Origin: an uncultured Nitrososphaerota archaeon
GTDB lineage: Archaea; Thermoproteota; Nitrososphaeria; Nitrososphaerales; Nitrosopumilaceae
Assembly: GCA_963701075.1 (NCBI GenBank)
Contig: OY969559.1
Span: 1,851,939-1,915,938 of the forward strand
Reading direction: 5' to 3'
Length of the DNA stretch: 64,000 nt
The notes beneath the pieces are model-generated. The model was given only the letters and a program-made list of their open reading frames with translations. It was not told the origin of the DNA and ran no database searches. Shown one piece after another: positions 2,208 to 64,000 of this stretch (its first letter is position 1; the number at the start of each line of letters is the position of its first letter). The position numbers were made by a program, and so were the translations under genes.

Positions 2208-2725
2208 ATCTAATTGTAACATGTAGCCGTAATTTTGAGGAAGAAGCGTCTGATGAGATTTCAAATATACTTCAGACACTAGGAGATGACAAAGCAGTGA
2301 CAAAGAACAGTGAATTTTCTGGAATAGTGGTAGTAGATACATCGCTAGACCCCTTTGAAGCTGTAGGTAAAATCAGAGCAAAAATTCTCGATGAGCCATG
2401 GAGTATCAGATATTGTCATCGATTCATACCAATTCAAGAGTCTACCAAGACTGTACTTGATGCAATAGTAAAAGCTGTACAAGAACATGTCAGTAACATA
2501 CAACCAGATGATTCTTACCGAATCACAATTGAGAAACGCGGTTCAGAGTTATCCTCTAAAGAGATAATCGATTCTGTCGCAGAAATTATTAGAAATAAAG
2601 TATCACTTGAAGAATATGATTGGAATATCATAATTGAAATTCTTGGAAATATAACTGGCGTTGCAGTGCTAAAGGACCAAGACATAGTAAGCACCCTAAA
2701 ACTAAAGCGAGATTCAATGGAGTAA
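2204..2725 (+). CDS. THUMP domain RNA-binding protein
   Basis: YRITIEKRG...VSLEEYDWNIIIEILG THUMP signature. Confidence 0.85.
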   Translation: MNLIVTCSRNFEEEASDEISNILQTLGDDKAVTKNSEFSGIVVVDTSLDPFEAVGKIRAKILDEPWSIRYCHRFIPIQESTKTVLDAIVKAVQEHVSNIQPDDSYRITIEKRGSELSSKEIIDSVAEIIRNKVSLEEYDWNIIIEILGNITGVAVLKDQDIVSTLKLKRDSME

Positions 2726-3493
2726 AACTGCAGATCTCTCAACTATGAGATCCTCAAGCGGTGTATTTGACATTACACAGTCAAGTCCTTTCTTTGTTAT
2801 GTTAAATTCCTTTTTTATAAAATTAGTATTGTCTGGAAATGGCAAAATTGATTCTGTCATGGGACTAATTTCAGCAAGAAGTTTTTTTATCAGAGATTTT
2901 TTGCCAATCATGATCAGAATAGAACCATTATTCTCCCGTAATCCTATTTTATTGATTGCCTCGCCAATCTGCCTTGTACATGCAAATCTCATAAGTATGT
3001 CAGTTTCAATTTTGTTAGAAAGCAGTGTGTTTGACTTGCTTGCTGCTAACGAGATTTCAATGACTCTCTTTGCATGACTTGTATTTAGTACATATTGTAG
3101 CCTAATACCTTGAATGATTACACCGGGAAACCTGATTCGTAGATTTTCAAGGAGTTTTATAGGATCAGTACTAGTTTTCTTCAACCTAGCTAATTCCACA
3201 TTATAATTTGAAATGCTAAAGTTGACGCTTATTTTACCACCACCATGCACCACAGGAATTATGCTAACAATATCCCCATCCTTAAGAGACGTTTCTGCGC
3301 CCTGCAAAGCGGAGGAATCTACTCCATTTATAGCGACAAGAACATTTTTGTCATCAAACGCAGGCATGTTTTTTGAAACCAAATCCTGAAGAAAAACAAG
3401 TAGATCAGATACAGTCATGGAATTTTTTTCAATCGATATCTTATCAGAAGAAAAAGAACGCTTTGCGCCACCAAGAAGTTTGACTGTTATCAT
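2714..3493 (-). CDS. cgi121: MoaD/ThiS ubiquitin-like domain fused to KEOPS subunit Cgi121
   Basis: N-terminal Ubl ending IIPVVHGG; C-terminal Cgi121 motif ETDILMRFACTRQIGEAI. Confidence 0.85.
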   Translation of the reverse strand: MITVKLLGGAKRSFSSDKISIEKNSMTVSDLLVFLQDLVSKNMPAFDDKNVLVAINGVDSSALQGAETSLKDGDIVSIIPVVHGGGKISVNFSISNYNVELARLKKTSTDPIKLLENLRIRFPGVIIQGIRLQYVLNTSHAKRVIEISLAASKSNTLLSNKIETDILMRFACTRQIGEAINKIGLRENNGSILIMIGKKSLIKKLLAEISPMTESILPFPDNTNFIKKEFNITKKGLDCVMSNTPLEDLIVERSAVLLH

Positions 3494-48392: not shown

Positions 48393-48819
48393 ACATTTTA
48401 GAGATGGGGACCTTTGATAAAAATTTACGCTAGATTCTATTCAGCCCTATATTTCTGATCATCATAATGATTCAGATATTTACATGGTTCCTACGTAATG
48501 CTTTTCATACCTTACGTTTACCGTAATGTCATTGCGTTATTTATCGAAGGCAATTCCTCTTGTTCTTTTCTTAATGTTATACAACAACATTGGTTTTAAT
48601 TACATCTGTAAGAGGACTTGATAACAGATAGCCGTTGAGAAGAAATGCTCCGCAAATATAATATACAGAGATCGCACATTGTGTAACATGGTGGCAGATT
48701 TGAATTATGATTTTGGACAAAGCGCTCTTCTCCCCCTAGAGACCTGCTTTTTTAGAATGGTTTCTGCCATCTCTTTTTTCAATTAAGAAATGACCTGCAA
48801 AGAATACATCAATGGCATC

Positions 48820-50039
48820 ATGGAAAAACTACGCGTTGTTCTCCTTGCTGTTGTGGTCATTGCAGTGCTTGGTAGCAGTGCTGGTTTTATACATGCAAGT
48901 CAGGCTTCTTCTGGTCCGTATGCCACAACAGACAAGATGGCGTTTCCTGATTATGTGAGTTTATTTAAGATGACACAAGGCTCCATAGTCCAAATAACAA
49001 GTATAGTATCGGATCCATCTGAGATCATCATCACAAATGGTATACAGTCTAACGCTAACACCACTATGCTTGGCTCGGGGTTTATGTATGATACTGCGGG
49101 ACACATAATCACAAATGCCCATGTGGTGGGTCAGAACAAGGTTGTCTATGTAACACTCATTGATGGCAATACCTATAATGCAAATGTAGTTGGGATAGAT
49201 CCATACAATGATTTGGCAGTAGTACAGTAACTGGCAACTTTACCGGAGAAAACATAGTACCACTACAGCTTGGTAACTCTTCCCAACTTGAGGTAGGGCA
49301 GTACGTGGCAGCAATCGGCAATCCGTTTGGCCTTGAAGATACCATGACTAATGGTATCATATCACAACTTGGCAGAACACTTGACGATGAGGAGACTGGT
49401 GGATTTTCTATTCCTGATATTATTCAAACTAGTGCAGCAATAAATCCTGGAAACTCTGGTGGGCCACTTCTTAACATGGCAGGACAGGTAATTGGGATGA
49501 ATACCGCAATAAAGACCGATACCGGTGACTTTGCAGGAGTCGGATATGCAATTCCATCAAACCAGCTTGCAAGAATAGTGCCAGTCCTGATAAAGAATGG
49601 TACATACCAGCACCCTTGGCTTGGCATTGAGGGAAGGAACCTGACCCCAGAGATAGCCCTTGCAAATGGGTTTGCGCAAAACTTCAAGGGCGTAGTAATA
49701 GAGAAGATATCAACTAACAGCTCTGCTTCAAAGGCAGGCCTTGAGGTTGCAACAGATGACCAGAACGGCATACCACATGGCGGAGATATCATAGTATCAA
49801 CTGATGGACATCCTGTCAAATCCATCTATGATATCATAGGATATCTGGATGATTACAAATCAGTTGGAGATACCATAAATCTTGGAATAGACAGGGGCGG
49901 AAAGACGATTGAGGTTACACTAACATTACAGGCAAGACCACCTCCTGCACCGCCGGCGCCTCCAGCGTCTATACCATCTCCAGACCTTCCACAAATTCCT
50001 GGCTTTCCGCAGATCCCAGGCTTTCCACAAGTCCCATAA
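48820..50039 (+). CDS. htrA: HtrA/DegP serine protease with PDZ domain (apparent -1 frameshift near 49228)
   Basis: [25 protein letters not shown]; Pro-rich tail. Confidence 0.9.
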
Positions 50040-53413: not shown

Positions 53414-54409
53414 TCACTTGTCCACCCCCATTGCTTTCTTCCCTGTATAGTGCAAGAGTACGTCATCCAAACTGGCTCGGTGAGATTTTATCGAGGAGAT
53501 GCCAAATCCGTGATCTGTGGCAAACCTGACTATTTCCACCATGCCAATAATATTATTTTTCATGCCAAGGACAAACGAAGAATCGACTCGCTTGACATTT
53601 TCTACCCATCCCATCTCTCTTAACAGCTTGACAAACTCTTCACCTGAACCCTTGGATATCTTTACTGTTACCAGGTCCTCACCCACAGAGGCCTTGAGCT
53701 GGTCTGGTGTGCCTATAGCTAGTATCCTCCCTTCGTCAATGATGGCGGTCCTGTTGCAAAGGTAGTCAGCCTCGTCAAGATAAGATGTTGAAAGTAGGAC
53801 TGTTGTACCCCTCTCCTTGTTTATCCGTTTGATATAATCCCAAAGGTATCTTCTGGTCTGTACATCTAGGCCTATCGTAGGTTCGTCCAGAAAGAGAATA
53901 TCAGGATATGTCAGCATGCCCCTTGCTATCTCGAGCCTGCGGAGCATTCCTCCCGAGTAGTAGCGCACTTGAGTATCAGCATGAGCCTCAAGTCCTACAG
54001 TTTTGAGGACCTCGGCCACTCGCTTTTCCCTCACCTCTTTTGGTAGGTTGTACATTCGAGCTGCAAAATCAAGATTCTCCTTGCCTGTAAGATAGATGTC
54101 TACTGCTTCCTCTTCAAATACGAGACCTATACAGAGTCTTACACCATCTTTTTCCTTTACTATATCGTAGCCACATACTGTGGCACTGCCTGAATCTGGA
54201 TTCAAGAGTGAGGAGAGCATCATTACGGTTGTAGTCTTGCCTGCGCCATTCAAGCCAACAAGACCGAAGATATCACCTTGAAAAACTTGAAAGCTTACGG
54301 AGTTGACTGCTGCGATCTTTCCGTAGTGTTTGGTGATTGCCCTCACGTCAATAACAGGTTGGCCCTCACCTTCGCTTGTTTCACCAACAATAGTAGTAAC
54401 GTTTGTCAT
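53414..54409 (-). CDS. ABC exporter ATP-binding protein (DrrA-like)
   Basis: GLNGAGKTT, YSGGM, FLDEPT. Confidence 0.92.
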   Translation of the reverse strand: MTNVTTIVGETSEGEGQPVIDVRAITKHYGKIAAVNSVSFQVFQGDIFGLVGLNGAGKTTTVMMLSSLLNPDSGSATVCGYDIVKEKDGVRLCIGLVFEEEAVDIYLTGKENLDFAARMYNLPKEVREKRVAEVLKTVGLEAHADTQVRYYSGGMLRRLEIARGMLTYPDILFLDEPTIGLDVQTRRYLWDYIKRINKERGTTVLLSTSYLDEADYLCNRTAIIDEGRILAIGTPDQLKASVGEDLVTVKISKGSGEEFVKLLREMGWVENVKRVDSSFVLGMKNNIIGMVEIVRFATDHGFGISSIKSHRASLDDVLLHYTGKKAMGVDK

Positions 54410-54898
54410 GCTACCTCCTGAGAAAAATTTTCCAACTTCTTATCTCTTAAAACTTTGATCAAATAAGCAATTAAAAAGGTAACACGTTTCCCAAGTCTGA
54501 GAAACAATCAAGGATTCGAACTGAAATAATGAATTCATGAGCAACCAAAGACGTAACAAATCCTAAAATCAATACTTGCAGTCCTTCAACTCAGATTTTT
54601 ACGTCTACATACGTGCGTACTGGATACCATTTTGGATAAATAGGAAAAAATAGGAAAATTTGGCCCCTTGTTTTTTCTAATATTCTGTGTACCTTTTGGG
54701 TTGATGAGCAAAATAGGAGTGGACTGGAGGGGTTTCACTAACTGCAGCGTCTGAAACCCCTGAATTTTTCTCATTTTTCATGGTTTCATCATTCATGTTG
54801 GTTATGATACTGGACCATATTGTTAAATTTTTGGGACCCCATGCAAATGAATTATTTCACAAGTGTAAAACTGTACAATACTTTACAGCTTTCAGGTA

Positions 54899-55156
54899 GT
54901 TTCAATCCTTGTTATGATGGATTTGTCTTTTTGACAACCTGCTTTGATACCCTCACCTGCTTCGATACCCGTTTCAATCCTTGTTATGATGGATTTGTCT
55001 TTTTGACGATCTCCAAGGTGCATATCTCCGAGGTGCATATCTCGTTTCAATCCTTGTTATGATGGATTTGTCTTTTTGACCATGTTTAATTCTGTCGAAC
55101 CTATCACTGCAAGAAATATGTTTCAATCCTTGTTATGATGGATTTGTCTTTTTGGC
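54899..55156 (-). CRISPR. CRISPR mini-array: 4 repeats (37 bp), 3 spacers (35, 36, 39 bp)
   Basis: GTTTCAATCCTTGTTATGATGGATTTGTCTTTTTGAC at 54899, 54971, 55044, 55120 (last with one mismatch); strand inferred from the ATTGAAAC 3' end. Confidence 0.95.
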
Positions 55157-55209
55157 TTTGCTATTCAAAACCAGATCATTCTTAAATCATTCTTTTTGTG
55201 TAGATCATC

Positions 55210-56898
55210 ATGCTTGCATACGAGTTATTTTTGATTAATAAGAAATCAGATACAAGTGACCCCCGTGGAGGCTCACAGCCAATTAAAAAAATATTCTTTC
55301 AAAATGGTACAGTCATAATAGATAAAGCCCTTGAGGAATACACTTCAGAATATTTGGAAAGAACCAAACAATTACAGGACTGGCTTCAGATGCCATTAAA
55401 CACTATTGACAAGAAAGAACTCAATCTTCCTGATATGAGAGTGTCTTTTGCACAGCCTAGTCCATATGTCGAAGTTTATGGTAATGTTAAAACAAACAAA
55501 AACTCAGAAAGTATGCTATCTATTACAATAGGTAAAAAACCAAACATCATTGAATACTCCTTGGACGTATTGACTGGAAAAATTATTAAGAATCACAACT
55601 CAAAGATCAAGCTCAAAATTGATGACAAAAATTATTTTCTAAAAGACAATAATCTGTTTACATCATATGTTGATTCTGGACTACTAGATAAAGACGGAAC
55701 TATAAACAACAATGCCTTTGATATCATATCTAGAGAGTTTCTAGAATATGCCAAAACCCGTGCTTGCAGTTTGACAACACAGGGAAACCTTAGATTTAGA
55801 ATCTACATCTTACCAAATGATTCTGAAATTAAAGTCAAAGAAAAAGAAATTACAACTAAAGGCGATTCGTTTTTGGATTATTTTGGCAATACGTCATCAG
55901 AGTATGCATCTACACCCACAACAACTACAAAATTTTTGTCATACGATGATAAAGCATTTACAATTAACTGCAAACAAAAAAGTGATTTTTATAAAAATGT
56001 GGGAATTGGGAAAGAGTCACTACAAAAAATTTTTCGTCCTAAAGGAAAAACTTTTAACATTAGTGGACTAGAATGGACATTTCTCAATATTTCTGATAAT
56101 GATTACAAGTTTAAAGATACACGAAAAGGCATTTTGACACAACTGTATGAAAATTATAAAATACTTTCAAAAGACTCTGGACCAAGCAGGCAAATTAATC
56201 TCAAAGTCATTTGTGTGCGAGTTAATCAAGCAAAACAGGAACTTTTGATTGATGAAAACCTTACAATGAAACAAATGTCAAAAATGTTTTCTAAAATAGA
56301 TGAAACAAAAATTCCTTTCTCTGTATTTGAGATACTCATAGACAAATCCAATAAAAATCCCATTTGGAACACCTACTTGTATGTGGTGAAGAATTATCTG
56401 TCCGGCAACTCTGTTTCTAAAGAATTCCTTCTGGCATATTTTACAAAATTGCTCAAACACAAAATATTTGATTGGATAAAACTGAAAAACAATAAAGAAC
56501 AACTCGATTTCTTTTCCAAATCTGACTTTTGTATAAAATACTTAATTAATACAAATATCATACAGAACTACATGAATTCTAATGAAGAGTTTGCACTAAG
56601 AATTGGACAAATTGCAAGACGGTATGTTGATTTTAAACAGAGTAATAAAGATGGAGATAATTCACTAGGAGATATTTTGACATATTCAAAGTATGACCGA
56701 GAGCGATTACGATTTGTATATTCTAGAATATCACGTGGAGTTCAGCTTGCCAAAGTAGCAGATACATCAAAGGACGATGTGACTAAGAAAATTAGCTCAC
56801 TTCGACCTAAAGAAGAAATTTCTGATGATGATGCATCAAAAGATTATTCGTATTTCTTTTTTAATGGATATTACACAAGTCAGGAGATTAAAGCATGA
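55210..56898 (+). CDS. cas8b: type I-B large subunit Cas8b (divergent)
   Basis: first gene before cas7-cas5-cas3; size; C-terminal helical Cas11-like region ending FFNGY. Confidence 0.75.
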   Translation: MLAYELFLINKKSDTSDPRGGSQPIKKIFFQNGTVIIDKALEEYTSEYLERTKQLQDWLQMPLNTIDKKELNLPDMRVSFAQPSPYVEVYGNVKTNKNSESMLSITIGKKPNIIEYSLDVLTGKIIKNHNSKIKLKIDDKNYFLKDNNLFTSYVDSGLLDKDGTINNNAFDIISREFLEYAKTRACSLTTQGNLRFRIYILPNDSEIKVKEKEITTKGDSFLDYFGNTSSEYASTPTTTTKFLSYDDKAFTINCKQKSDFYKNVGIGKESLQKIFRPKGKTFNISGLEWTFLNISDNDYKFKDTRKGILTQLYENYKILSKDSGPSRQINLKVICVRVNQAKQELLIDENLTMKQMSKMFSKIDETKIPFSVFEILIDKSNKNPIWNTYLYVVKNYLSGNSVSKEFLLAYFTKLLKHKIFDWIKLKNNKEQLDFFSKSDFCIKYLINTNIIQNYMNSNEEFALRIGQIARRYVDFKQSNKDGDNSLGDILTYSKYDRERLRFVYSRISRGVQLAKVADTSKDDVTKKISSLRPKEEISDDDASKDYSYFFFNGYYTSQEIKA

Positions 56899-57821
56899 CT
56901 TTGACTGAGATTCTGTTTTACTACGAATCAAAGCAAAATCCAAACGGAGATCCTGGATTTGAAAATCAACCAAGAATGATGCCTGATGACACAATAATGG
57001 TAACAGATGTGAGAATAAAGAGAACAATACGCGATTATGCCAGAGATATTCTTGGCGAGACTCTGTTTGTCGATTATGATAAAAATGGTTCTCCAACAAC
57101 AGCTGATGGAAAAGCCAAAGAAATTCTCGGTTCACTTAGTGGAGATGTAATTAGTGGTTTGTTAAAAAAAACATTTGATGTTCCATTGTTTGGTGCGTTA
57201 GTTACAATTAGAAAAGGTTCTGATGATGAATCAGGTTCTGCAAAATTGACTGGTCCATTACAGTTTGGAAATTCCAGAAGCGTAAATAAAGTTCAGATTA
57301 TAAACCCTACAATAGTTGGAAGATTTGTTGGGAAAGAAAAAGAAGGAAAACAATTTTCAACATTTGGAAAATTCTATTCTGTAGAATATGCATTAATCAA
57401 AGTACAGGGAGCAGTAAATCCAAAAAATCTTGGAAAATATAGTGAGGACAAGGAAATTGTAAAAAAATTTGATGAAAAATCATCCATGATTCATAAATGT
57501 CTGTGGCATGGAACAACCAAACTGATTACAAGATCAAAGTTTCCACAACGCAGTATTTTGTATATTGATGTATCTTACAAGAATCAAATCTACAATGATC
57601 TTCCAAATCTAGTTGATGAAAGTAAAGAACTAAAAGGAATGGCAAAGGATCTAGGAGCATCACCATTTGATTTTTCTAAACTAATTGATACGTTATCTAA
57701 AAGAAAGTTGGAGATAGTAATGGTTCAATTGAGAGGTGCGGAGGATGTTTCCAAAGATGTAGATGAACTAGAATCCAAGTTAAAGTCAAAAGGAATCTCA
57801 GTAAAAATACTGTCAGATTGA
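56895..57821 (+). CDS. cas7: Cas7 (Csh2/Cas7b type)
   Basis: NPNGDP..N.PR, VTDVRIKRTIRDY, D..LFG, GPLQF. Confidence 0.93.
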   Translation: MTLTEILFYYESKQNPNGDPGFENQPRMMPDDTIMVTDVRIKRTIRDYARDILGETLFVDYDKNGSPTTADGKAKEILGSLSGDVISGLLKKTFDVPLFGALVTIRKGSDDESGSAKLTGPLQFGNSRSVNKVQIINPTIVGRFVGKEKEGKQFSTFGKFYSVEYALIKVQGAVNPKNLGKYSEDKEIVKKFDEKSSMIHKCLWHGTTKLITRSKFPQRSILYIDVSYKNQIYNDLPNLVDESKELKGMAKDLGASPFDFSKLIDTLSKRKLEIVMVQLRGAEDVSKDVDELESKLKSKGISVKILSD

Positions 57822-58549
57822 AAATCATCTCATTTAGAATATCTGGAGCGTTTGGAGCATTTAGAGATCCATCAGTTACCTCAAACCAAACCGTATACTA
57901 TATTCCCTCAAAAAGTGCGGTAGTTGGGATTTTGGGCGCTATGATTGGAATAAAACGCTCAGATCAGTTAGAAGATATTTACAGTATAGAATATTTGGAT
58001 TTTTTTAAGAATACAAATATTGGAATACAGTTAGAATCTCCCCCAAAAAAAGTGGTATATTTTACAAACCATCGTTCCATAAAAGAGGCAAAAACAAAGC
58101 CATTCAAGACAGAGGTAGTTGAAAATCCAAGATATACAATCTACGTTGATACTGAAAAATCATACTTTGAGAAACTATCAAACGCATTGATGAAAAACCA
58201 GTTTGTATATTCTCCATATCTTGGTCATGCATATTGTCCTGCATCAGTTTTTGATGCCAAAGAAATTGATGCAAAAGTTGTAGATTTTGAATATGAAAAA
58301 ACAAAATGTGTGGTTCTTGATGAATCATATGATCCTAGTTTTACTCTTAAAATGAATCCTACTGATAATGAAGGTTCTTTGATGATAGAAAGACACATCC
58401 ATCATTTTTTTAATGAGGAAAAGTTTGATGGACGTGTTTTAAAACATTGGATTCCAACAAATAATTCAGAGTATAAAATTGAAAGAGACTCTCCAAGAAA
58501 GATGTCAAAGTTTTACAAGGTGGGAGAATACGTTGTGTGCATGTACTAG
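57818..58549 (+). CDS. cas5: Cas5
   Basis: GAFGAFR.P.....Y.IPSKSAVVGILGAMIG; YSPYLG. Confidence 0.93.
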   Translation: MKIISFRISGAFGAFRDPSVTSNQTVYYIPSKSAVVGILGAMIGIKRSDQLEDIYSIEYLDFFKNTNIGIQLESPPKKVVYFTNHRSIKEAKTKPFKTEVVENPRYTIYVDTEKSYFEKLSNALMKNQFVYSPYLGHAYCPASVFDAKEIDAKVVDFEYEKTKCVVLDESYDPSFTLKMNPTDNEGSLMIERHIHHFFNEEKFDGRVLKHWIPTNNSEYKIERDSPRKMSKFYKVGEYVVCMY

Positions 58550-60782
58550 AGAATTTTTATCTCATCCTATTGATGAACCAAAACACTCCCTAATAGAACA
58601 CTTGATTGCGGTTGGAAAAAAATCAAATGAACTTTTTACAGAGACTAGCTTCAAAAATAAAAATATCGCATTTTATTCAGGACTCTTGCACGATGTAGGC
58701 AAGATAAATCCGTGGTATCAAGAAATATTTAATGCAACACAAGATAGGAAAAAAATACAGGAAGACGTATCAACAAAATTTGTACAACAGCATTCTGTAT
58801 TTTCTGCTTGGGCAGCAAAATATCTTTTATCCAAAATTGGATTAGAATATGACATAATTGATAAGATACTTGTGCTAATTTACGGACATCATAGTACAAT
58901 ACGAAGAAACCTCGGTGAGATGAAAAAGGGAAAACAATTCATTGCATCTCATGATTTTATGAAAGAAAGCATCAAAGAATTTTCATCTCAAGTATCTTCC
59001 ATGTCTGAATTTTCCTCTCTGAACTGGAACTTGTGCATGAATGAATTTAGTAATCCTGTATCATTTGATCTAACATTAAATTCGACTAGCACTCCAGATG
59101 ACTTTTTGGAAATGTCTGTGGCATTTTCATGCCTATTGCAAGCCGACAGAGGCAGTTTCAAAGACTGGTCCATCCCAAAATTTGATCTAAGTATTGATAC
59201 TACCTCCCTAGCAAAACCCCAGCAAATGAGAAACTTGTCATCTTCTGCTAGACTTCAACAGGAGAAAATGGGAGACATGAGAAACAGATTCCAAAAAGAA
59301 GTCATGGAGAACTTTGATTATTCTGAAAAAGTCATTGTAATTCATGCCCCCACTGGAATAGGCAAGACCAAGGTCTTTCTTGACCTGATTTCAAAATATA
59401 AAGGCGACAAAATGATTCAACGAGTTTTTTATTTTTCACCACTTTTAGCACTGACTGAAGATTTTGAAAGAAAATTTGAATCAACCCTTCTTCAGGATAA
59501 AAAGCAGTCTAGTGATATTTTAATTTACAATCACATGTTTGCAGATTCACTTGAAGAAAAAAGAAAATCCGAAAATGAAGGATACACTCACGAGTGGAAT
59601 TTTCTAATTGAATCATTTAACAAAAAATTTGTAATAACTACCACCCAGAGACTTTTAATGACCATTTATTCCAATACTGCAACAGATAAATTAAAACTGG
59701 CATCATTTAGAAATGCCATCTTAATTATTGATGAGGTCCAGACAATTCCAAAATTTATTTTATCAAACCTCAAAGAGATATTTCTAAAAATGAGTCAATA
59801 CATGGGAACAAAAATAATACTTGTCAGTGCAACAATTCCAGAAGAAATCGGTGATATGAAACGAGTGAAAATCTCAGAAAAACTTGTATCTGATTATCTT
59901 GATCAAACACAAAAACAAATAGCAGTGGTGAAAAAACTTGACCTTTTAACACTGATAATCAACAAGACACTAGTCATGGCAAACACTAGAAAAAAAGCAG
60001 TCAACATTTACAATGACATATCACAAATTTATACCGATACAACAAAAATTTATCTTTCATCTGGAATAAGAAAAAAAGACAGAATAGAGATTTTAAAAAA
60101 TCTCTTAGAAAAAGAAAACTATGTTTTGGTATCTACTCAAGTAGTAGAAGCAGGAGTGGACATTAGTTTTTCAAATATCTACAGGGAATTTGCTCCACTG
60201 GATAACATCATACAAGTAATGGGGAGATTGAACCGAGAAGGATTAAACCCTGATGCCAAACTGATTATCTATTCAACAGATGGTAATGAATTTCCATACA
60301 GCCAACTTGAATTTGCTGAATCACAGAAAAGACTGGAAAATATACACAATTCAAAGGAACTATACGGTATTTTGAAGTCGTATTACAGTGACATATCTGC
60401 AAGAAACAATCGCAATATTGCAAAAACAGATGATCTTGAACGTTACATCAAAAATTTAGATTTTGATGGTACATGGAAGTTTGTAAAAAATGAACTTTTT
60501 ACAGAAGACGATCGAGACTCGGTTTTTATTCCTGAATTGAAAGACTGGGATCAACTCAAAGATGCACTAGTAAATAATCAGTTGAAAGACAATTTTAAAA
60601 AATATGGATTACTTACTGCGACACTCCCACGCTCAGTCTATAAAATTGGTACAGAGTATTTTGATGAGGCTTTATTAGAGAAAAATATTTTACTTCCAAA
60701 AAAAGAGCATCTTAAAACAATCTATGATGAAAACATGGGATTAGATAAATGGATCATATCTGAAACTGTAAGTAGTGATTGA
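58479..60782 (+). CDS. cas3: Cas3 HD nuclease-helicase (start possibly TTG 58533)
   Basis: LIEHL, LLHDVGK, HH, QAD, APTGIGKT, DEVQ, SAT, QVVEAGVD, QVMGRLNR. Confidence 0.95.
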   Translation: MKETLQERCQSFTRWENTLCACTREFLSHPIDEPKHSLIEHLIAVGKKSNELFTETSFKNKNIAFYSGLLHDVGKINPWYQEIFNATQDRKKIQEDVSTKFVQQHSVFSAWAAKYLLSKIGLEYDIIDKILVLIYGHHSTIRRNLGEMKKGKQFIASHDFMKESIKEFSSQVSSMSEFSSLNWNLCMNEFSNPVSFDLTLNSTSTPDDFLEMSVAFSCLLQADRGSFKDWSIPKFDLSIDTTSLAKPQQMRNLSSSARLQQEKMGDMRNRFQKEVMENFDYSEKVIVIHAPTGIGKTKVFLDLISKYKGDKMIQRVFYFSPLLALTEDFERKFESTLLQDKKQSSDILIYNHMFADSLEEKRKSENEGYTHEWNFLIESFNKKFVITTTQRLLMTIYSNTATDKLKLASFRNAILIIDEVQTIPKFILSNLKEIFLKMSQYMGTKIILVSATIPEEIGDMKRVKISEKLVSDYLDQTQKQIAVVKKLDLLTLIINKTLVMANTRKKAVNIYNDISQIYTDTTKIYLSSGIRKKDRIEILKNLLEKENYVLVSTQVVEAGVDISFSNIYREFAPLDNIIQVMGRLNREGLNPDAKLIIYSTDGNEFPYSQLEFAESQKRLENIHNSKELYGILKSYYSDISARNNRNIAKTDDLERYIKNLDFDGTWKFVKNELFTEDDRDSVFIPELKDWDQLKDALVNNQLKDNFKKYGLLTATLPRSVYKIGTEYFDEALLEKNILLPKKEHLKTIYDENMGLDKWIISETVSSD

Positions 60783-60786
60783 ATAG

Positions 60787-61461
60787 ATGAAGATGTGTGA
60801 TTCTCAAATGAATGACAAAAGAATAAAGATATGCCACGCAATACTGGATTTTGATTCAGAGAAAAATGTAACACCTATACAACTACGAGGATTTTTTGCT
60901 CATCTGTTTACAAATATTTCTGAATTCCACCACCACTCTGATAATTCCTATCACTATCCACTGATTCAATATAAAAGAATTGATAAGAAACTTGCAGTCA
61001 TTGGTATAGGAGAGTTTGCAGACGTTGTATTTGACAAAATGTCAAACCTTGATCACATCACTACTCAAGACCAAAAAATACCGTTAACCAACATTGAGCT
61101 ACAAAACAGCGTCTATTTTCCTAAAGAAGTCGAAAACAAATACAAGTTTACATCCCCTTGGATTGCATTAAACAAAGAAAACTATTCAAAATATACATCG
61201 CTTGAAAAAAAAGATCAGAGACAATTCCTAGAAAAGATTCTTGTAGGAAATATCCTGAGCATGCTAAAAGGAATGGAAATATTCATAGATCAAAAAATAA
61301 CCGTAAAAATAAACAGTTGCAAAACAATTACCACTACTGCACACCAAAATAAGTTTGCAGGATTTTTCTGCGATTGGATTTCCAGCATAACTATTCCAGA
61401 ATACTGTGGTCTTGGAAAAAGCACATCCAAGGGATTTGGAGTTGTAATTAGTTCAAAATGA
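60787..61461 (+). CDS. cas6: Cas6 (Cas6b-type) endoribonuclease
   Basis: YPLIQYK and C-terminal G-rich loop GLGKSTSKGFG. Confidence 0.88.
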   Translation: MKMCDSQMNDKRIKICHAILDFDSEKNVTPIQLRGFFAHLFTNISEFHHHSDNSYHYPLIQYKRIDKKLAVIGIGEFADVVFDKMSNLDHITTQDQKIPLTNIELQNSVYFPKEVENKYKFTSPWIALNKENYSKYTSLEKKDQRQFLEKILVGNILSMLKGMEIFIDQKITVKINSCKTITTTAHQNKFAGFFCDWISSITIPEYCGLGKSTSKGFGVVISSK

Positions 61462-62402
61462 TCGTAGAGATTACTACTCATGGAAGTACATTGAAGAGAG
61501 ATCATGATTCATTCATAGTTCAAACTACTGATGGAAAAACTGATATTCCTGCAGAAAAAGTGGATGCGATAATTATATCATCAAATTCTCTAATCAGCAC
61601 ACAGGCAGTACGTTTGTGTATTGAAAAACAGATTCAATTAGTAATTTCTACTTGGTCTGGAAAACCTATTGCAAGATTGTGGTCAAGCAGTCCAGGAAAA
61701 TCTACTGAATTACGTCGCAATCAATACCTCAATCAAGACACGGTCATAGGATATGAAATATCATTGAACATACTTTCCAAAAAACTAAAGGGACAAAAAC
61801 AATTCCTAGTTGATTTAAGAAACAACCGAAAACTGCCTCCAGCAAAATTAGAGACTGCCATTTCAACAATAGATAATTCCCTGAAAAAACTGACTGCAAT
61901 AAAATACACCAATGACTACAAGGCAACATTTTTGGGTCTGGAGGGTGCCTGTGCTGCAAACTATTTTCAGGCAATTTCTTCAATCCTACCTGAAAAATGG
62001 TCTACACAAAAAAGAAGTCAGCACCCAGCACATGATGAATTTAACGCTACATTGAACTATCTGTATGGAATGGCATATGCTGATGTTGAAAAAATAATAA
62101 TTCTCTCTGGACTTGATCCAAACGCTGGCTTTTACCATTCTGACTCTTATGGAAAACCAACGCTTTCATTTGATATAATAGAAATAATCAGACCAGTTGT
62201 TGATAGAATTATAGTTACATCATTTACAAAGAAGATGGTAAAGGGTAACTGGTTTGAAAAACAAGACGATGACACAAACTCAATTTTTCTTTCAAAGGAA
62301 GGAAGGCAATTTCTAATTTCATCATATATTGAAAATGGACGCAAGACTGTGGAGACTGAATCATGGGATTTTTGCAAAATTATAATACAAAAACTACAGT
62401 GA
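61458..62402 (+). CDS. cas1: Cas1
   Basis: GLEGACAANYF, NATLNYLYG, GLDP..GFYH, LSFDIIE. Confidence 0.95.
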   Translation: MIVEITTHGSTLKRDHDSFIVQTTDGKTDIPAEKVDAIIISSNSLISTQAVRLCIEKQIQLVISTWSGKPIARLWSSSPGKSTELRRNQYLNQDTVIGYEISLNILSKKLKGQKQFLVDLRNNRKLPPAKLETAISTIDNSLKKLTAIKYTNDYKATFLGLEGACAANYFQAISSILPEKWSTQKRSQHPAHDEFNATLNYLYGMAYADVEKIIILSGLDPNAGFYHSDSYGKPTLSFDIIEIIRPVVDRIIVTSFTKKMVKGNWFEKQDDDTNSIFLSKEGRQFLISSYIENGRKTVETESWDFCKIIIQKLQ

Positions 62403-62409
62403 TACATGT

Positions 62410-62706
62410 ATGAAAAAGAATATGTATTATGCAGTCTATGATATTACTGAAAACTCTACTCGTAGCTCAGTAATTCATGTCCTAAAGAATCATGGATTTA
62501 CAAGAATCCAAAAAAGTGTATTTTGTGGAAGTTTATCTGGGCAGAACAAAAAAGATTTGATTGAAACAATAAAGACAATCGTTGATGAAAATGATTCATT
62601 CTATCTAATATTGACATGCAACCAATGCTTTGGTAAAATAAAAATAATTGGAAAAGGATTTGACGAGGAATACGTCTCAGATAAAAAACCGGCAGTGGTA
62701 CTATAA
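62410..62706 (+). CDS. cas2: Cas2
   Basis: VYDIT...R....LK..G..RIQKSVF. Confidence 0.95.
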   Translation: MKKNMYYAVYDITENSTRSSVIHVLKNHGFTRIQKSVFCGSLSGQNKKDLIETIKTIVDENDSFYLILTCNQCFGKIKIIGKGFDEEYVSDKKPAVVL

Positions 62707-62708
62707 TA

Positions 62709-63293
62709 ATGTCACTGACAGTAACTGATGTAGTAGAATACACATTTTGTCCCAAATTTCCATATTTTATCAACGTCTTGGGACTAGACCAATACGAACA
62801 GAAGAGGGGGACAGTTACTGCAGGACGAAAACTGCACCAACTACACGAAAGAAATAATCTAGACTATATCCCCCACACAAATAAAGGCAGAAAACTTGTT
62901 GCTAGTAAATTTTATTCTGAGAAACTTGATTTGTCTGGAAAGATAGATGAGGCAATTGAGACAGATGATGAGATAATTCTAATAGAACGAAAATACAGTG
63001 ACATTTGTGACATATCTAATACTCTTCTAGTTCAGTTAGGACTGCTGTCTATTCTAATTGAGGAGAATCTTGGGAAATCTGTCAAAAAAGCAGTTGTGAT
63101 TTTTAATAAAACTAAAAGAAAACAAATCTCTGTAGTAATTGATGATGCCGTAAAAAATCACTCACTTGAAATACTAGAGAAAACAAAAAAAGTCATTCAA
63201 ATGGGAATAATGCCTGATGCTGATTTTGATAACCGTTGTCTTAACTGTTGTTTTAGAAAAATTTGCCCTGTCGGATCCTTAAATAGTGGATGA
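62709..63293 (+). CDS. cas4: Cas4
   Basis: FCPK, GKID, IERK, C..C.FRKIC. Confidence 0.93.
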   Translation: MSLTVTDVVEYTFCPKFPYFINVLGLDQYEQKRGTVTAGRKLHQLHERNNLDYIPHTNKGRKLVASKFYSEKLDLSGKIDEAIETDDEIILIERKYSDICDISNTLLVQLGLLSILIEENLGKSVKKAVVIFNKTKRKQISVVIDDAVKNHSLEILEKTKKVIQMGIMPDADFDNRCLNCCFRKICPVGSLNSG

Positions 63294-63377
63294 TAATTAT
63301 TGGAAACCACTAAAATGGGGTGATTAAATACAAAAAAACTGAATAAAATAGGCACAGTTTAGCCTGTTCTAATGACG
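63294..63377 (+). promoter_or_regulatory. putative CRISPR leader
   Basis: AT-rich non-coding segment between the cas4 stop and the first repeat; TTAAATA box. Confidence 0.55.
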
Positions 63378-64000
63378 GTCAAAAAGACAAATCCATCATA
63401 ACAAGGATTGAAACCAGTGACATAAATCTGTTCATGCAGCTGTTAAGAGTATGTCAAAAAGACAAATCCATCATAACAAGGATTGAAACAATGTCAAGTA
63501 ACCTGATCATGAGTGCAGATCATGCATGTCAAAAAGACAAATCCATCATAACAAGGATTGAAACTAAAGTCCAACTCTGCTCATACAGATGATAGAATTG
63601 TCAAAAAGACAAATCCATCATAACAAGGATTGAAACCAAAATATTCAGCCGGTACCCCAAGTACTTGGGTATGTCAAAAAGACAAATCCATCATAACAAG
63701 GATTGAAACCAGAGACTGGATTTGATGTTGCTCTTGCAAGAGGTCAAAAAGACAAATCCATCATAACAAGGATTGAAACAAGCAAGTTGAGAACAATGCA
63801 ATCAAGACCATCATTGGTCAAAAAGACAAATCCATCATAACAAGGATTGAAACCACTTACTATCATCAATCACCACCCACGCAGAGAAACGTCAAAAAGA
63901 CAAATCCATCATAACAAGGATTGAAACCTATTTCTCTTGATTTTTGTATCTTTTGTAGATACCGTCAAAAAGACAAATCCATCATAACAAGGATTGAAAC
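63378..64000 (+). CRISPR. CRISPR array: at least 9 repeats and 8 spacers, reaching the window end
   Basis: GTCAAAAAGACAAATCCATCATAACAAGGATTGAAAC at 63378, 63453, 63528, 63600, 63673, 63743, 63817, 63891, 63964; spacers 33-38 bp. Confidence 0.98.

Follow-up and report, generated by a model that had tools for sequence, protein, structure and literature searches.

A small second CRISPR array, lying just upstream of cas8b in a soil ammonia-oxidising archaeon, carries two spacers that are themselves tandem repeats. We think it likely that this is a normal secondary type I-B array, that the periodicity of the two spacers was inherited from the genes they were taken from, and that the two are linked by the neighbourhood of those genes, probably via priming. 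The array occupies positions 54899-55156 of a 64,000-nt window, the whole stretch of DNA analysed here, which forms the final 64 kb of the single 1.916-Mb contig (38.6% G+C) of an uncultured Nitrososphaerota archaeon (contig OY969559.1; genome G000 in our set). The genome encodes archaeal AmoA. What the array represents is not a new kind of defence system; it is ordinary CRISPR immunity with an unusual side effect.

The array consists of four 37-nt repeats and three spacers of 35, 36 and 39 nt, and ends 53 nt upstream of cas8b. We defined the CRISPR RNA (crRNA) sense as the strand on which the repeat ends in ATTGAAAC, and named the spacers A to C in that sense. The parts are as follows.

54899-54935, minus strand: repeat 4, leader-distal in the crRNA sense, same as the main-array repeat.
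54936-54970 (35 nt), minus strand: spacer C, the oldest; crRNA sense GGGTATCGAAGCAGGTGAGGGTATCAAAGCAGGTT, period 18; it was taken, sense strand, from a viral gene for GI(E/K)AGx hexapeptide repeats.
54971-55007, minus strand: repeat 3, identical to the main-array repeat.
55008-55043 (36 nt), minus strand: spacer B, period 15; the crRNA is antisense to a pentapeptide-repeat gene, and the plus strand translates to DLQGAYLRGAYL.
55044-55080, minus strand: repeat 2, identical to the main-array repeat.
55081-55119 (39 nt), minus strand: spacer A, the newest and leader-proximal, aperiodic.
55120-55156, minus strand: repeat 1, leader-proximal, with one substitution (GCC... for GTC... in the crRNA sense).
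55157-55209 (53 nt), separating the small array from the start codon of cas8b: candidate promoter (divergent) and leader, as read from the sequence.

Three of the four repeats are thus identical to the 37-nt repeat of the main array, and the fourth carries a single substitution. The small array is inverted relative to the main array and runs divergently from cas8b. Since the ATTGAAAC end of the repeat gives the crRNA sense, the small array is read on the minus strand from the cas8b side, which sets the spacer order A, B, C and makes C the oldest. This orientation is backed by the main-array leader, which is 95% conserved in the related genome G079, and by the degenerate repeat with which the G079 array closes, at its far end. 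One palindromic, TATA-like word (TCTTAAATCA / TGATTTAAGA) stands about 24 nt away from the first small-array repeat and some 22 nt before the ATG of cas8b; as a promoter element it could work in both directions, in which case the cas8b mRNA would be leaderless. In the main array, an AATAAAATAG word stands about as far from the first repeat. Contigs of four public DNA runs, which cover only parts of the window, were compared with the region, and one contig of run X6 carries the repeat-spacer A-repeat segment unchanged.

How unusual is the periodicity of spacers B and C? Spacer C repeats with a period of 18 (15 of 17 compared positions equal) and spacer B with a period of 15 (19 of 21 equal), for which Tandem Repeats Finder reports 2.3 copies at 55009-55043. 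We scored periods of 6-18, allowing at most two mismatches in a strict test and at most three in a relaxed one. The strict test is passed by 119 of the 1,915,903 36-mers of the host genome (6.2e-5, a count that includes the small-array spacer itself), so that the periodicity of the spacers is real and far from chance for host-like DNA. None of 66 spacers in arrays with the same repeat (14 in the main array of G000, 42 in G079, 10 in G067) passes the strict test. Under the relaxed test one of the 66 passes, a G079 spacer of period 12, as does one of 16 in the related array of a second same-genus genome (G075/G452). The periodic G079 spacer (L020 2469-2503; 20 of 23 positions equal) yielded no target. 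A previous sequence-only reading of this DNA had described the two periodic spacers, had contrasted them with aperiodic spacers in the large array, and had translated them as repeat-protein motifs. All of this holds: none of the 14 main-array spacers passes the strict test, and the translations are correct and lie in the same frames as the target open reading frames (ORFs). GIEAGEGIKAG, from spacer C, corresponds to the coding frame of its target ORFs, and DLQGAYLRGAYL, from spacer B, equals 11 of 12 residues of the ORF that opens contig L030, 12 residues being too short for Pfam scoring.

The target of spacer C is a hexapeptide-repeat gene. A 25-nt core of the spacer was found in 11 contigs, six from metagenomes and five from species-representative genomes. 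Rather than a single protospacer, each of the 11 holds 2-11 sites with at most five mismatches, spaced at 18-nt steps. The best site has one mismatch in seven contigs (L027, L028, L030, L032, L115, L116 and L117) and two in the other four, and the sites fall within ORFs of 178-241 amino acids that encode GI(E/K)AG(E/W/S) repeats. The 5' flank of the best site is TTC in L115, L027 and L032 and TTG in L116 and L117, and registers located after a Glu codon have TGA. Several registers do match, but to a modest extent: each gene has one to three sites that combine at most two mismatches with a TTN protospacer adjacent motif (PAM), and four of the contigs have at least two. These counts are lower bounds, since many contigs end within the repeat. 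Among 80 relatives in IMG/VR, picked by protein similarity only, a spacer C site with at most five mismatches is present in eight, with at most three in two, and with at most two in none.

The hexapeptide-repeat protein itself belongs to a large, unnamed family of 798 database proteins (E ≤0.001) and 137 IMG/VR contigs with G+C contents of 0.31-0.69; a Ralstonia phage protein is among its members. An AlphaFold2 model of the protein is beta-rich, with short strands every six residues and a mean predicted local distance difference test score of 84.9. Foldseek comparison of the model with the PDB, made for a left-handed beta-helix (hexapeptide-repeat) or bactofilin-type fold, gave nothing below E 0.6, the weak top rows being GlmU, LpxD, gamma-carbonic anhydrase and bactofilin, and the protein has no Pfam or PHROG match; some homologues carry PF27195, a family absent from the Pfam copy used. 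Repeat number ranges from about 3 to more than 25 units. The repeat seems to interrupt assembly, as many viral contigs stop inside the hexapeptide gene and two have the gene at each end.

Spacer B matches a pentapeptide-repeat gene. The ORF at the start of contig L030 (3-413) opens with DLQGAYLRGADLQDADLQGADETN... and matches PF00805 (E 2.8e-5, 24 bits, cut-off 20.2). Spacer B agrees with it at 29 of 36 nt, five of the seven differences being synonymous third positions, and the flank is TTG. A second pentapeptide-repeat gene, in contig L116 (3299-3610+), matches PF00805 with E 1.3e-20 and 73 bits against the same cut-off of 20.2, and is matched by spacer B in four registers with 8-9 mismatches each. 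A 151-nt contig of run X5 fits 34 nt of the spacer (55009-55042) with three differences, and its flanks carry on the 15-nt unit. Four pattern scans with spacer B were without match, among them IMG/VR, a metagenome scan with its core (0) and a scan at up to three mismatches of 400 other genomes of the order (0). In IMG/VR, exact scans with spacers B and C at full length, with two degenerate cores and with 26 nt of spacer A gave 0 matches. The sequence-only reading had proposed that both spacers derive from viral repeat-protein genes and that the guides hit many registers of them. The hexapeptide gene in 11 contigs and the Pfam-confirmed pentapeptide gene bear out the first proposal. The second stands for spacer C, with its 2-11 sites in every contig; for spacer B only diverged relatives were found.

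Why should two periodic spacers lie side by side? In two contigs, L030 and L116, the pentapeptide gene is located 0.3-0.9 kb from the hexapeptide gene, and one of these contigs is binned in a genome of the same genus as the host. The pentapeptide ORF of L030 lies upstream of the hexapeptide gene, on the same strand, and stops about 330 nt short of it. Within 1.9 kb, L116 has three consecutive genes: the one for the hexapeptide protein (1733-2458), one for a Cas4-like PD-(D/E)XK nuclease (2461-3105; Pfam Cas_Cas4, E 1.4e-6) and the pentapeptide gene. This adjacency is not general in the family, a regular-expression search finding a pentapeptide run near the hexapeptide gene in one of 80 IMG/VR relative loci. 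Neighbourhood is the simplest account, given that B and C lie next to each other in the array and so do their sources on the element: the spacers are periodic because they come from tandem-repeat coding DNA, they stand side by side because their sources do, and with a source of this kind each crRNA has a single best site plus several staggered near-matches within that gene. In four short target contigs (L116, L030, L031 and L032) periodic 36-mers account for 3.7-12.6%, against 1.1% in twelve 20-kb viral loci surrounding the hexapeptide gene and 6e-5 in the host. Two independent draws from the whole virus would yield two periodic spacers at about 3e-4; if the second is drawn from the neighbourhood of the first, as primed adaptation would do, the probability is in the per-cent range.

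The element that carries these genes is virus-like. Neighbours of the hexapeptide gene encode a YqaJ/RecE-like exonuclease, an HNH-like zinc-finger protein and winged helix-turn-helix proteins, and two long contigs (31 and 34.5 kb) carry portal and head genes. The 31-kb contig (G454:C54) also has genes for a terminase large subunit, a major head protein and a tail protein, and G455:C213 has one for a minor head protein. Short target contigs were binned in two metagenome-assembled genomes (MAGs), G033 and G075, of the window's own genus. In a survey of 400 genomes of the family, a degenerate two-unit pattern was present in 3 of 62 other same-genus genomes, versus 0 of 338 genomes in 26 other genera. 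The third match within the genus, G032 (G032:C16, L136 1180-1983), is a different gene, a 267-residue ORF with about six hexapeptide units (GIKAGS/SIEAGE) and a zinc-ribbon-like N-terminus, and is not a spacer.

A second host has sampled the same gene. The array of G075/G452 has a related repeat (four differences) and 16 spacers. Its spacer 7 finds 35 of 35 nt within the hexapeptide repeat region of L115, which belongs to the same bin, beside a TTA flank; its spacer 10 agrees at 32 of 34 nt with a site just upstream in that gene, beside a TTG flank. Together with spacer C, this places three protospacers from two hosts inside about 75 nt where the repeat region begins, all with 5'-TTN (L115, reverse complement, 352-426; L116 1863-1991; array in L118), and this cluster may be a hot spot. 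When the 69 spacers of G000, G079 and G067 were compared by BLAST with the virus-like loci (L027-L112, L113-L117 and the two full-length long contigs), only B and C matched convincingly, the other rows being 18-20-nt matches of two G079 spacers. Among the 16 spacers of G075/G452, only spacers 7 and 10 match the same loci.

The small array stands beside a complete type I-B gene set, with cas3, cas5, cas7, cas6b, cas1, cas2 and cas4 accompanying the large subunit in an operon at 55210-63293. Both arrays have repeats within the range of about 30-37 nt that end in ATTGAAAC and unique spacers of about 33-40 nt, and spacers match foreign DNA beside a 5' PAM, imperfectly in the case of B and C. The genes and the main array are as follows.

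55210-56898, plus strand: large subunit (cas8b by position), 562 amino acids, no family match in Pfam or NCBIfam.
56895-57821, plus strand: cas7 (Pfam); the best NCBIfam match is the I-B model (Csh2), below its curated cut-off.
57818-58549, plus strand: cas5 (Pfam); the best NCBIfam match is the I-B model (Cas5h), below its curated cut-off.
58479-60782, plus strand: cas3, HD and helicase (Pfam).
60787-61461, plus strand: cas6b (Pfam).
61458-62402, plus strand: cas1 (Pfam).
62410-62706, plus strand: cas2 (Pfam).
62709-63293, plus strand: cas4 (Pfam).
63378-64000, continuing over the contig junction, plus strand: main array, 15 repeats and 14 spacers, none periodic.

The main array spans the two ends of the single contig (63378-64000 and genome positions 1-436), the assembly having been opened inside it, and spacers could be missing at the junction. 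Elsewhere in the window, a trypsin-like/PDZ protease of the HtrA type is split into two ORFs (48790-49230 and 49305-50039), which may represent a frameshifted or interrupted gene.

We compared the locus with its relatives. The closest, G079, shares the repeat and has an array of 43 repeats and a cas8b of 94% amino acid and 95% DNA identity. Its DNA becomes similar to the window at 55208, two nucleotides before the cas8b start codon, and no array lies upstream; this boundary suggests that the cas island is mobile or inserted at different places. Upstream of cas8b in G079 (L024 1083-1334), an 83-residue ORF looks, from its translation, like the C-terminal part of a tyrosine integrase. In G067, whose cas8b is 51% identical, no repeat with at most three mismatches occurs upstream of cas8b. 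Flanks of the cas8b homologues of G033, G008 and G028 (34-43% identity), searched up to 1.5 kb per locus, also have no repeats; the G008 contig ends 5 nt past a truncated cas8b match, leaving its upstream side unseen, and G028 is an unpublished genome. No spacer is common to the arrays of G000, G079 and G067 (best local score 13), which, given the 95% identical cas8b DNA of G000 and G079, indicates that the system turns over. An origin of the small array by rearrangement was considered and dropped, there being no similarity to the flanks of the G079 or G067 arrays beyond the repeats.

How would such an array have been filled and used? We infer that its transcript runs along the minus strand, starting on the side nearest to cas8b, that Cas6b would cut the transcript into crRNAs, and that a Cas8b-Cas7-Cas5 Cascade loaded with them would find TTN-flanked DNA for Cas3. 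Spacers B and C would have been captured from two neighbouring genes of a virus-like element infecting this archaeal genus, one encoding a pentapeptide-repeat protein and the other a GI(E/K)AGx hexapeptide-repeat protein predicted to be beta-rich. Primed adaptation is a likely route, the older hexapeptide spacer C having primed the capture of the pentapeptide spacer B. A precedent is the type I-B system of Haloarcula hispanica where, in the available text of Li et al. 2014 (PMC4066796), TTC, TTG and TTT are interference-permissive PAMs and priming draws new spacers from up- and downstream of the priming site, on either strand, with mismatches tolerated. The TTC and TTG flanks found here are alike, and such priming would fit adjacent spacers from genes at most 1.4 kb apart on opposite strands. 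The cases differ in that priming is read here from adjacency, and in that the host is a thaumarchaeon whose large subunit has no known family.

Several observations weigh against this account. Neither B nor C has a perfect protospacer, B having only relatives with 3-9 mismatches, and spacer A is without a target among the virus-like loci, the metagenome bins and IMG/VR. Neither flank of the small array resembles the leader or trailer of the main array beyond shuffle level, and the array has no copy of the main leader. The substitution in the leader-proximal repeat, missing from the other repeats, may mean that the array is no longer acquiring spacers. Both long contigs were binned with bacterial MAGs, and the host assignment consequently rests on the short contigs in same-genus MAGs; the capsid protein resembles only bacterial phages, at 27-34% identity, a level uninformative on the host. 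The contigs were collected through the hexapeptide gene, and matches to that gene are favoured. Finally, even within a 3-kb neighbourhood a second spacer would be periodic by chance only about 4-13% of the time, which leaves room for some repeat bias.

Such a bias is the main rival. Tandem-repeat genes could be preferred, or better retained, as spacer sources: the prespacer would be multi-copy, mismatched registers would sustain priming and cross-react with diverged viruses, and spacers of this kind would come to dominate an old small array. We regard this as unlikely, even though two of three spacers are periodic here versus 0 of 66 (strict) or 2 of 82 (relaxed) in related arrays. The array is a single case noticed after the fact, and main arrays of the same system family are 1-2% periodic, about what viral DNA would supply (1.1% of 36-mers in the 20-kb loci). 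That three spacers were taken, independently by two hosts, from some 75 nt where the repeat region starts would fit a bias, but the virus contigs had been collected by way of that gene. The reach of spacer C into eight of the 80 IMG/VR relatives, and the greater tolerance of I-B priming than of interference for mismatches and PAMs (PMC4066796, available text), would also favour it; set against this, the neighbourhood of the sources already accounts for much of the coincidence. Alternatively, the small array may be a relic, a fragment stranded for example by recombination between arrays, which no longer acquires spacers, may be unexpressed and preserves a frozen sample of an old infection without present function. 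Its flanks, with their shuffle-level resemblance to the main-array leader, its substituted cas8b-proximal repeat, its absence from G079 (where similarity begins exactly at 55208) and its absence near the other cas8b homologues would all suit a relic. We nevertheless find this improbable, since three repeats are perfect and the spacers have normal length, the TATA-like word some 24 nt upstream of the first repeat (read from the sequence) repeats the geometry of the main array, and a near-perfect TTC-flanked protospacer in same-genus metagenome bins argues that the memory is still relevant.

Could the array instead be regulatory? A position directly upstream of cas8b is typical of mini-arrays that encode CreA or cas-regulating cr-like RNAs (Shmakov et al. 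2023, 10.1101/2023.03.03.530964, available text), in which a spacer of partial complementarity guides Cascade to a promoter, here that of cas8b, a cargo gene or host pentapeptide paralogues, and represses it without cleavage. The host has six pentapeptide-repeat loci, one of which (genome 477235-477492) has a GGTGCA-NNN-CTC-NNN codon pattern like that of spacer B, at 10 of 36 mismatches. Nevertheless, the best sites in the whole host genome have 10 of 36 mismatches for B and 11 of 35 for C, without a TTN flank; no host match of either spacer reaches 15 nt, and no homologue of the hexapeptide protein occurs in the host genome. A seed-anchored scan of 54400-63400 on both strands returned only self-shifted matches and one inside cas3, 1 observed against 0.94 expected from shuffles, which is chance level. 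The array is also not conserved in G079, and it has three spacers between four units, three of them perfect and one with a single substitution, in place of one spacer and a degenerate repeat; two of the spacers have near-perfect viral targets. A regulatory role thus seems highly improbable, and with it the suggestion in the sequence-only reading that the guides regulate host paralogues. The same reading had raised a special multi-target mini-array strategy, which we abandon: the array is absent beside the other cas8b homologues examined, the cas locus holds no regulatory target for it, and the coincidence of two periodic spacers is largely explained by neighbouring sources. We return to a normal secondary type I-B array with spacers from neighbouring repeat genes as the likely account.

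Secondary CRISPR arrays flank type I-B cas operons in haloarchaea and clostridia. The small array resembles these in its main-array repeat, normal spacer length, place next to cas genes, presumed leader towards cas and virus-matching spacers. It differs in having three spacers only, a leader unrelated to that of the main array, no counterpart in a 95%-identical relative, and two of three spacers from tandem-repeat coding DNA.

With the regulatory mini-arrays and cr-like RNAs (CreA of CreTA, cas8-promoter guides) in the available text of Shmakov et al. 2023 (10.1101/2023.03.03.530964), it shares a short CRISPR repeat run outside the main array, beside the gene for the effector large subunit. 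Those mini-arrays usually comprise two often degenerate repeat-like units and one spacer; the small array departs from that layout and also lacks a cas-locus target and a conserved position, and has viral protospacers. Type I-B systems of Thaumarchaeota (Krupovic et al. 2019, PMC6563490, main text) are similar in that an ammonia-oxidising archaeon carries I-B spacers against mobile elements of the same phylum. There, spacers match a provirus capsid gene; here, they match two repeat-protein genes of contigs that resemble head-tailed viruses. An integrase-like fragment borders the G079 locus, which is what one would expect of mobile cas islands. A word search of the main text of PMC6563490 gave no use of 'pentapeptide' or 'mini-array', and word searches of open-access text, with the supplementary tables of 10.1101/2023.03.03.530964 (which may list related loci) outside their scope, found no paper on spacers derived from tandem-repeat or pentapeptide genes.

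A broader idea, which we hold to be doubtful at present, is that tandem-repeat coding DNA is a self-reinforcing hot spot of type I CRISPR memory, where a repeat-derived crRNA, with one good site and many mismatched registers, would both cut and keep priming, pull in neighbouring spacers, resist escape by point mutation and cross-react. If true, such spacers would be over-acquired and would outlive others in small old arrays, and the variation in viral repeat copy number, from about 3 to more than 25 units, would be the virus's counter-move.

The finding connects type I-B CRISPR in a soil ammonia-oxidising archaeon with a concrete virus-like element from the same genus, two of whose genes it names. 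It presents a natural case in which one guide matches its target gene at several staggered sites, and in which two hosts have independently sampled the same 75-nt stretch. With the array and its targets one could ask, in a simple and testable system, whether guides that come from repeats withstand escape or favour priming.

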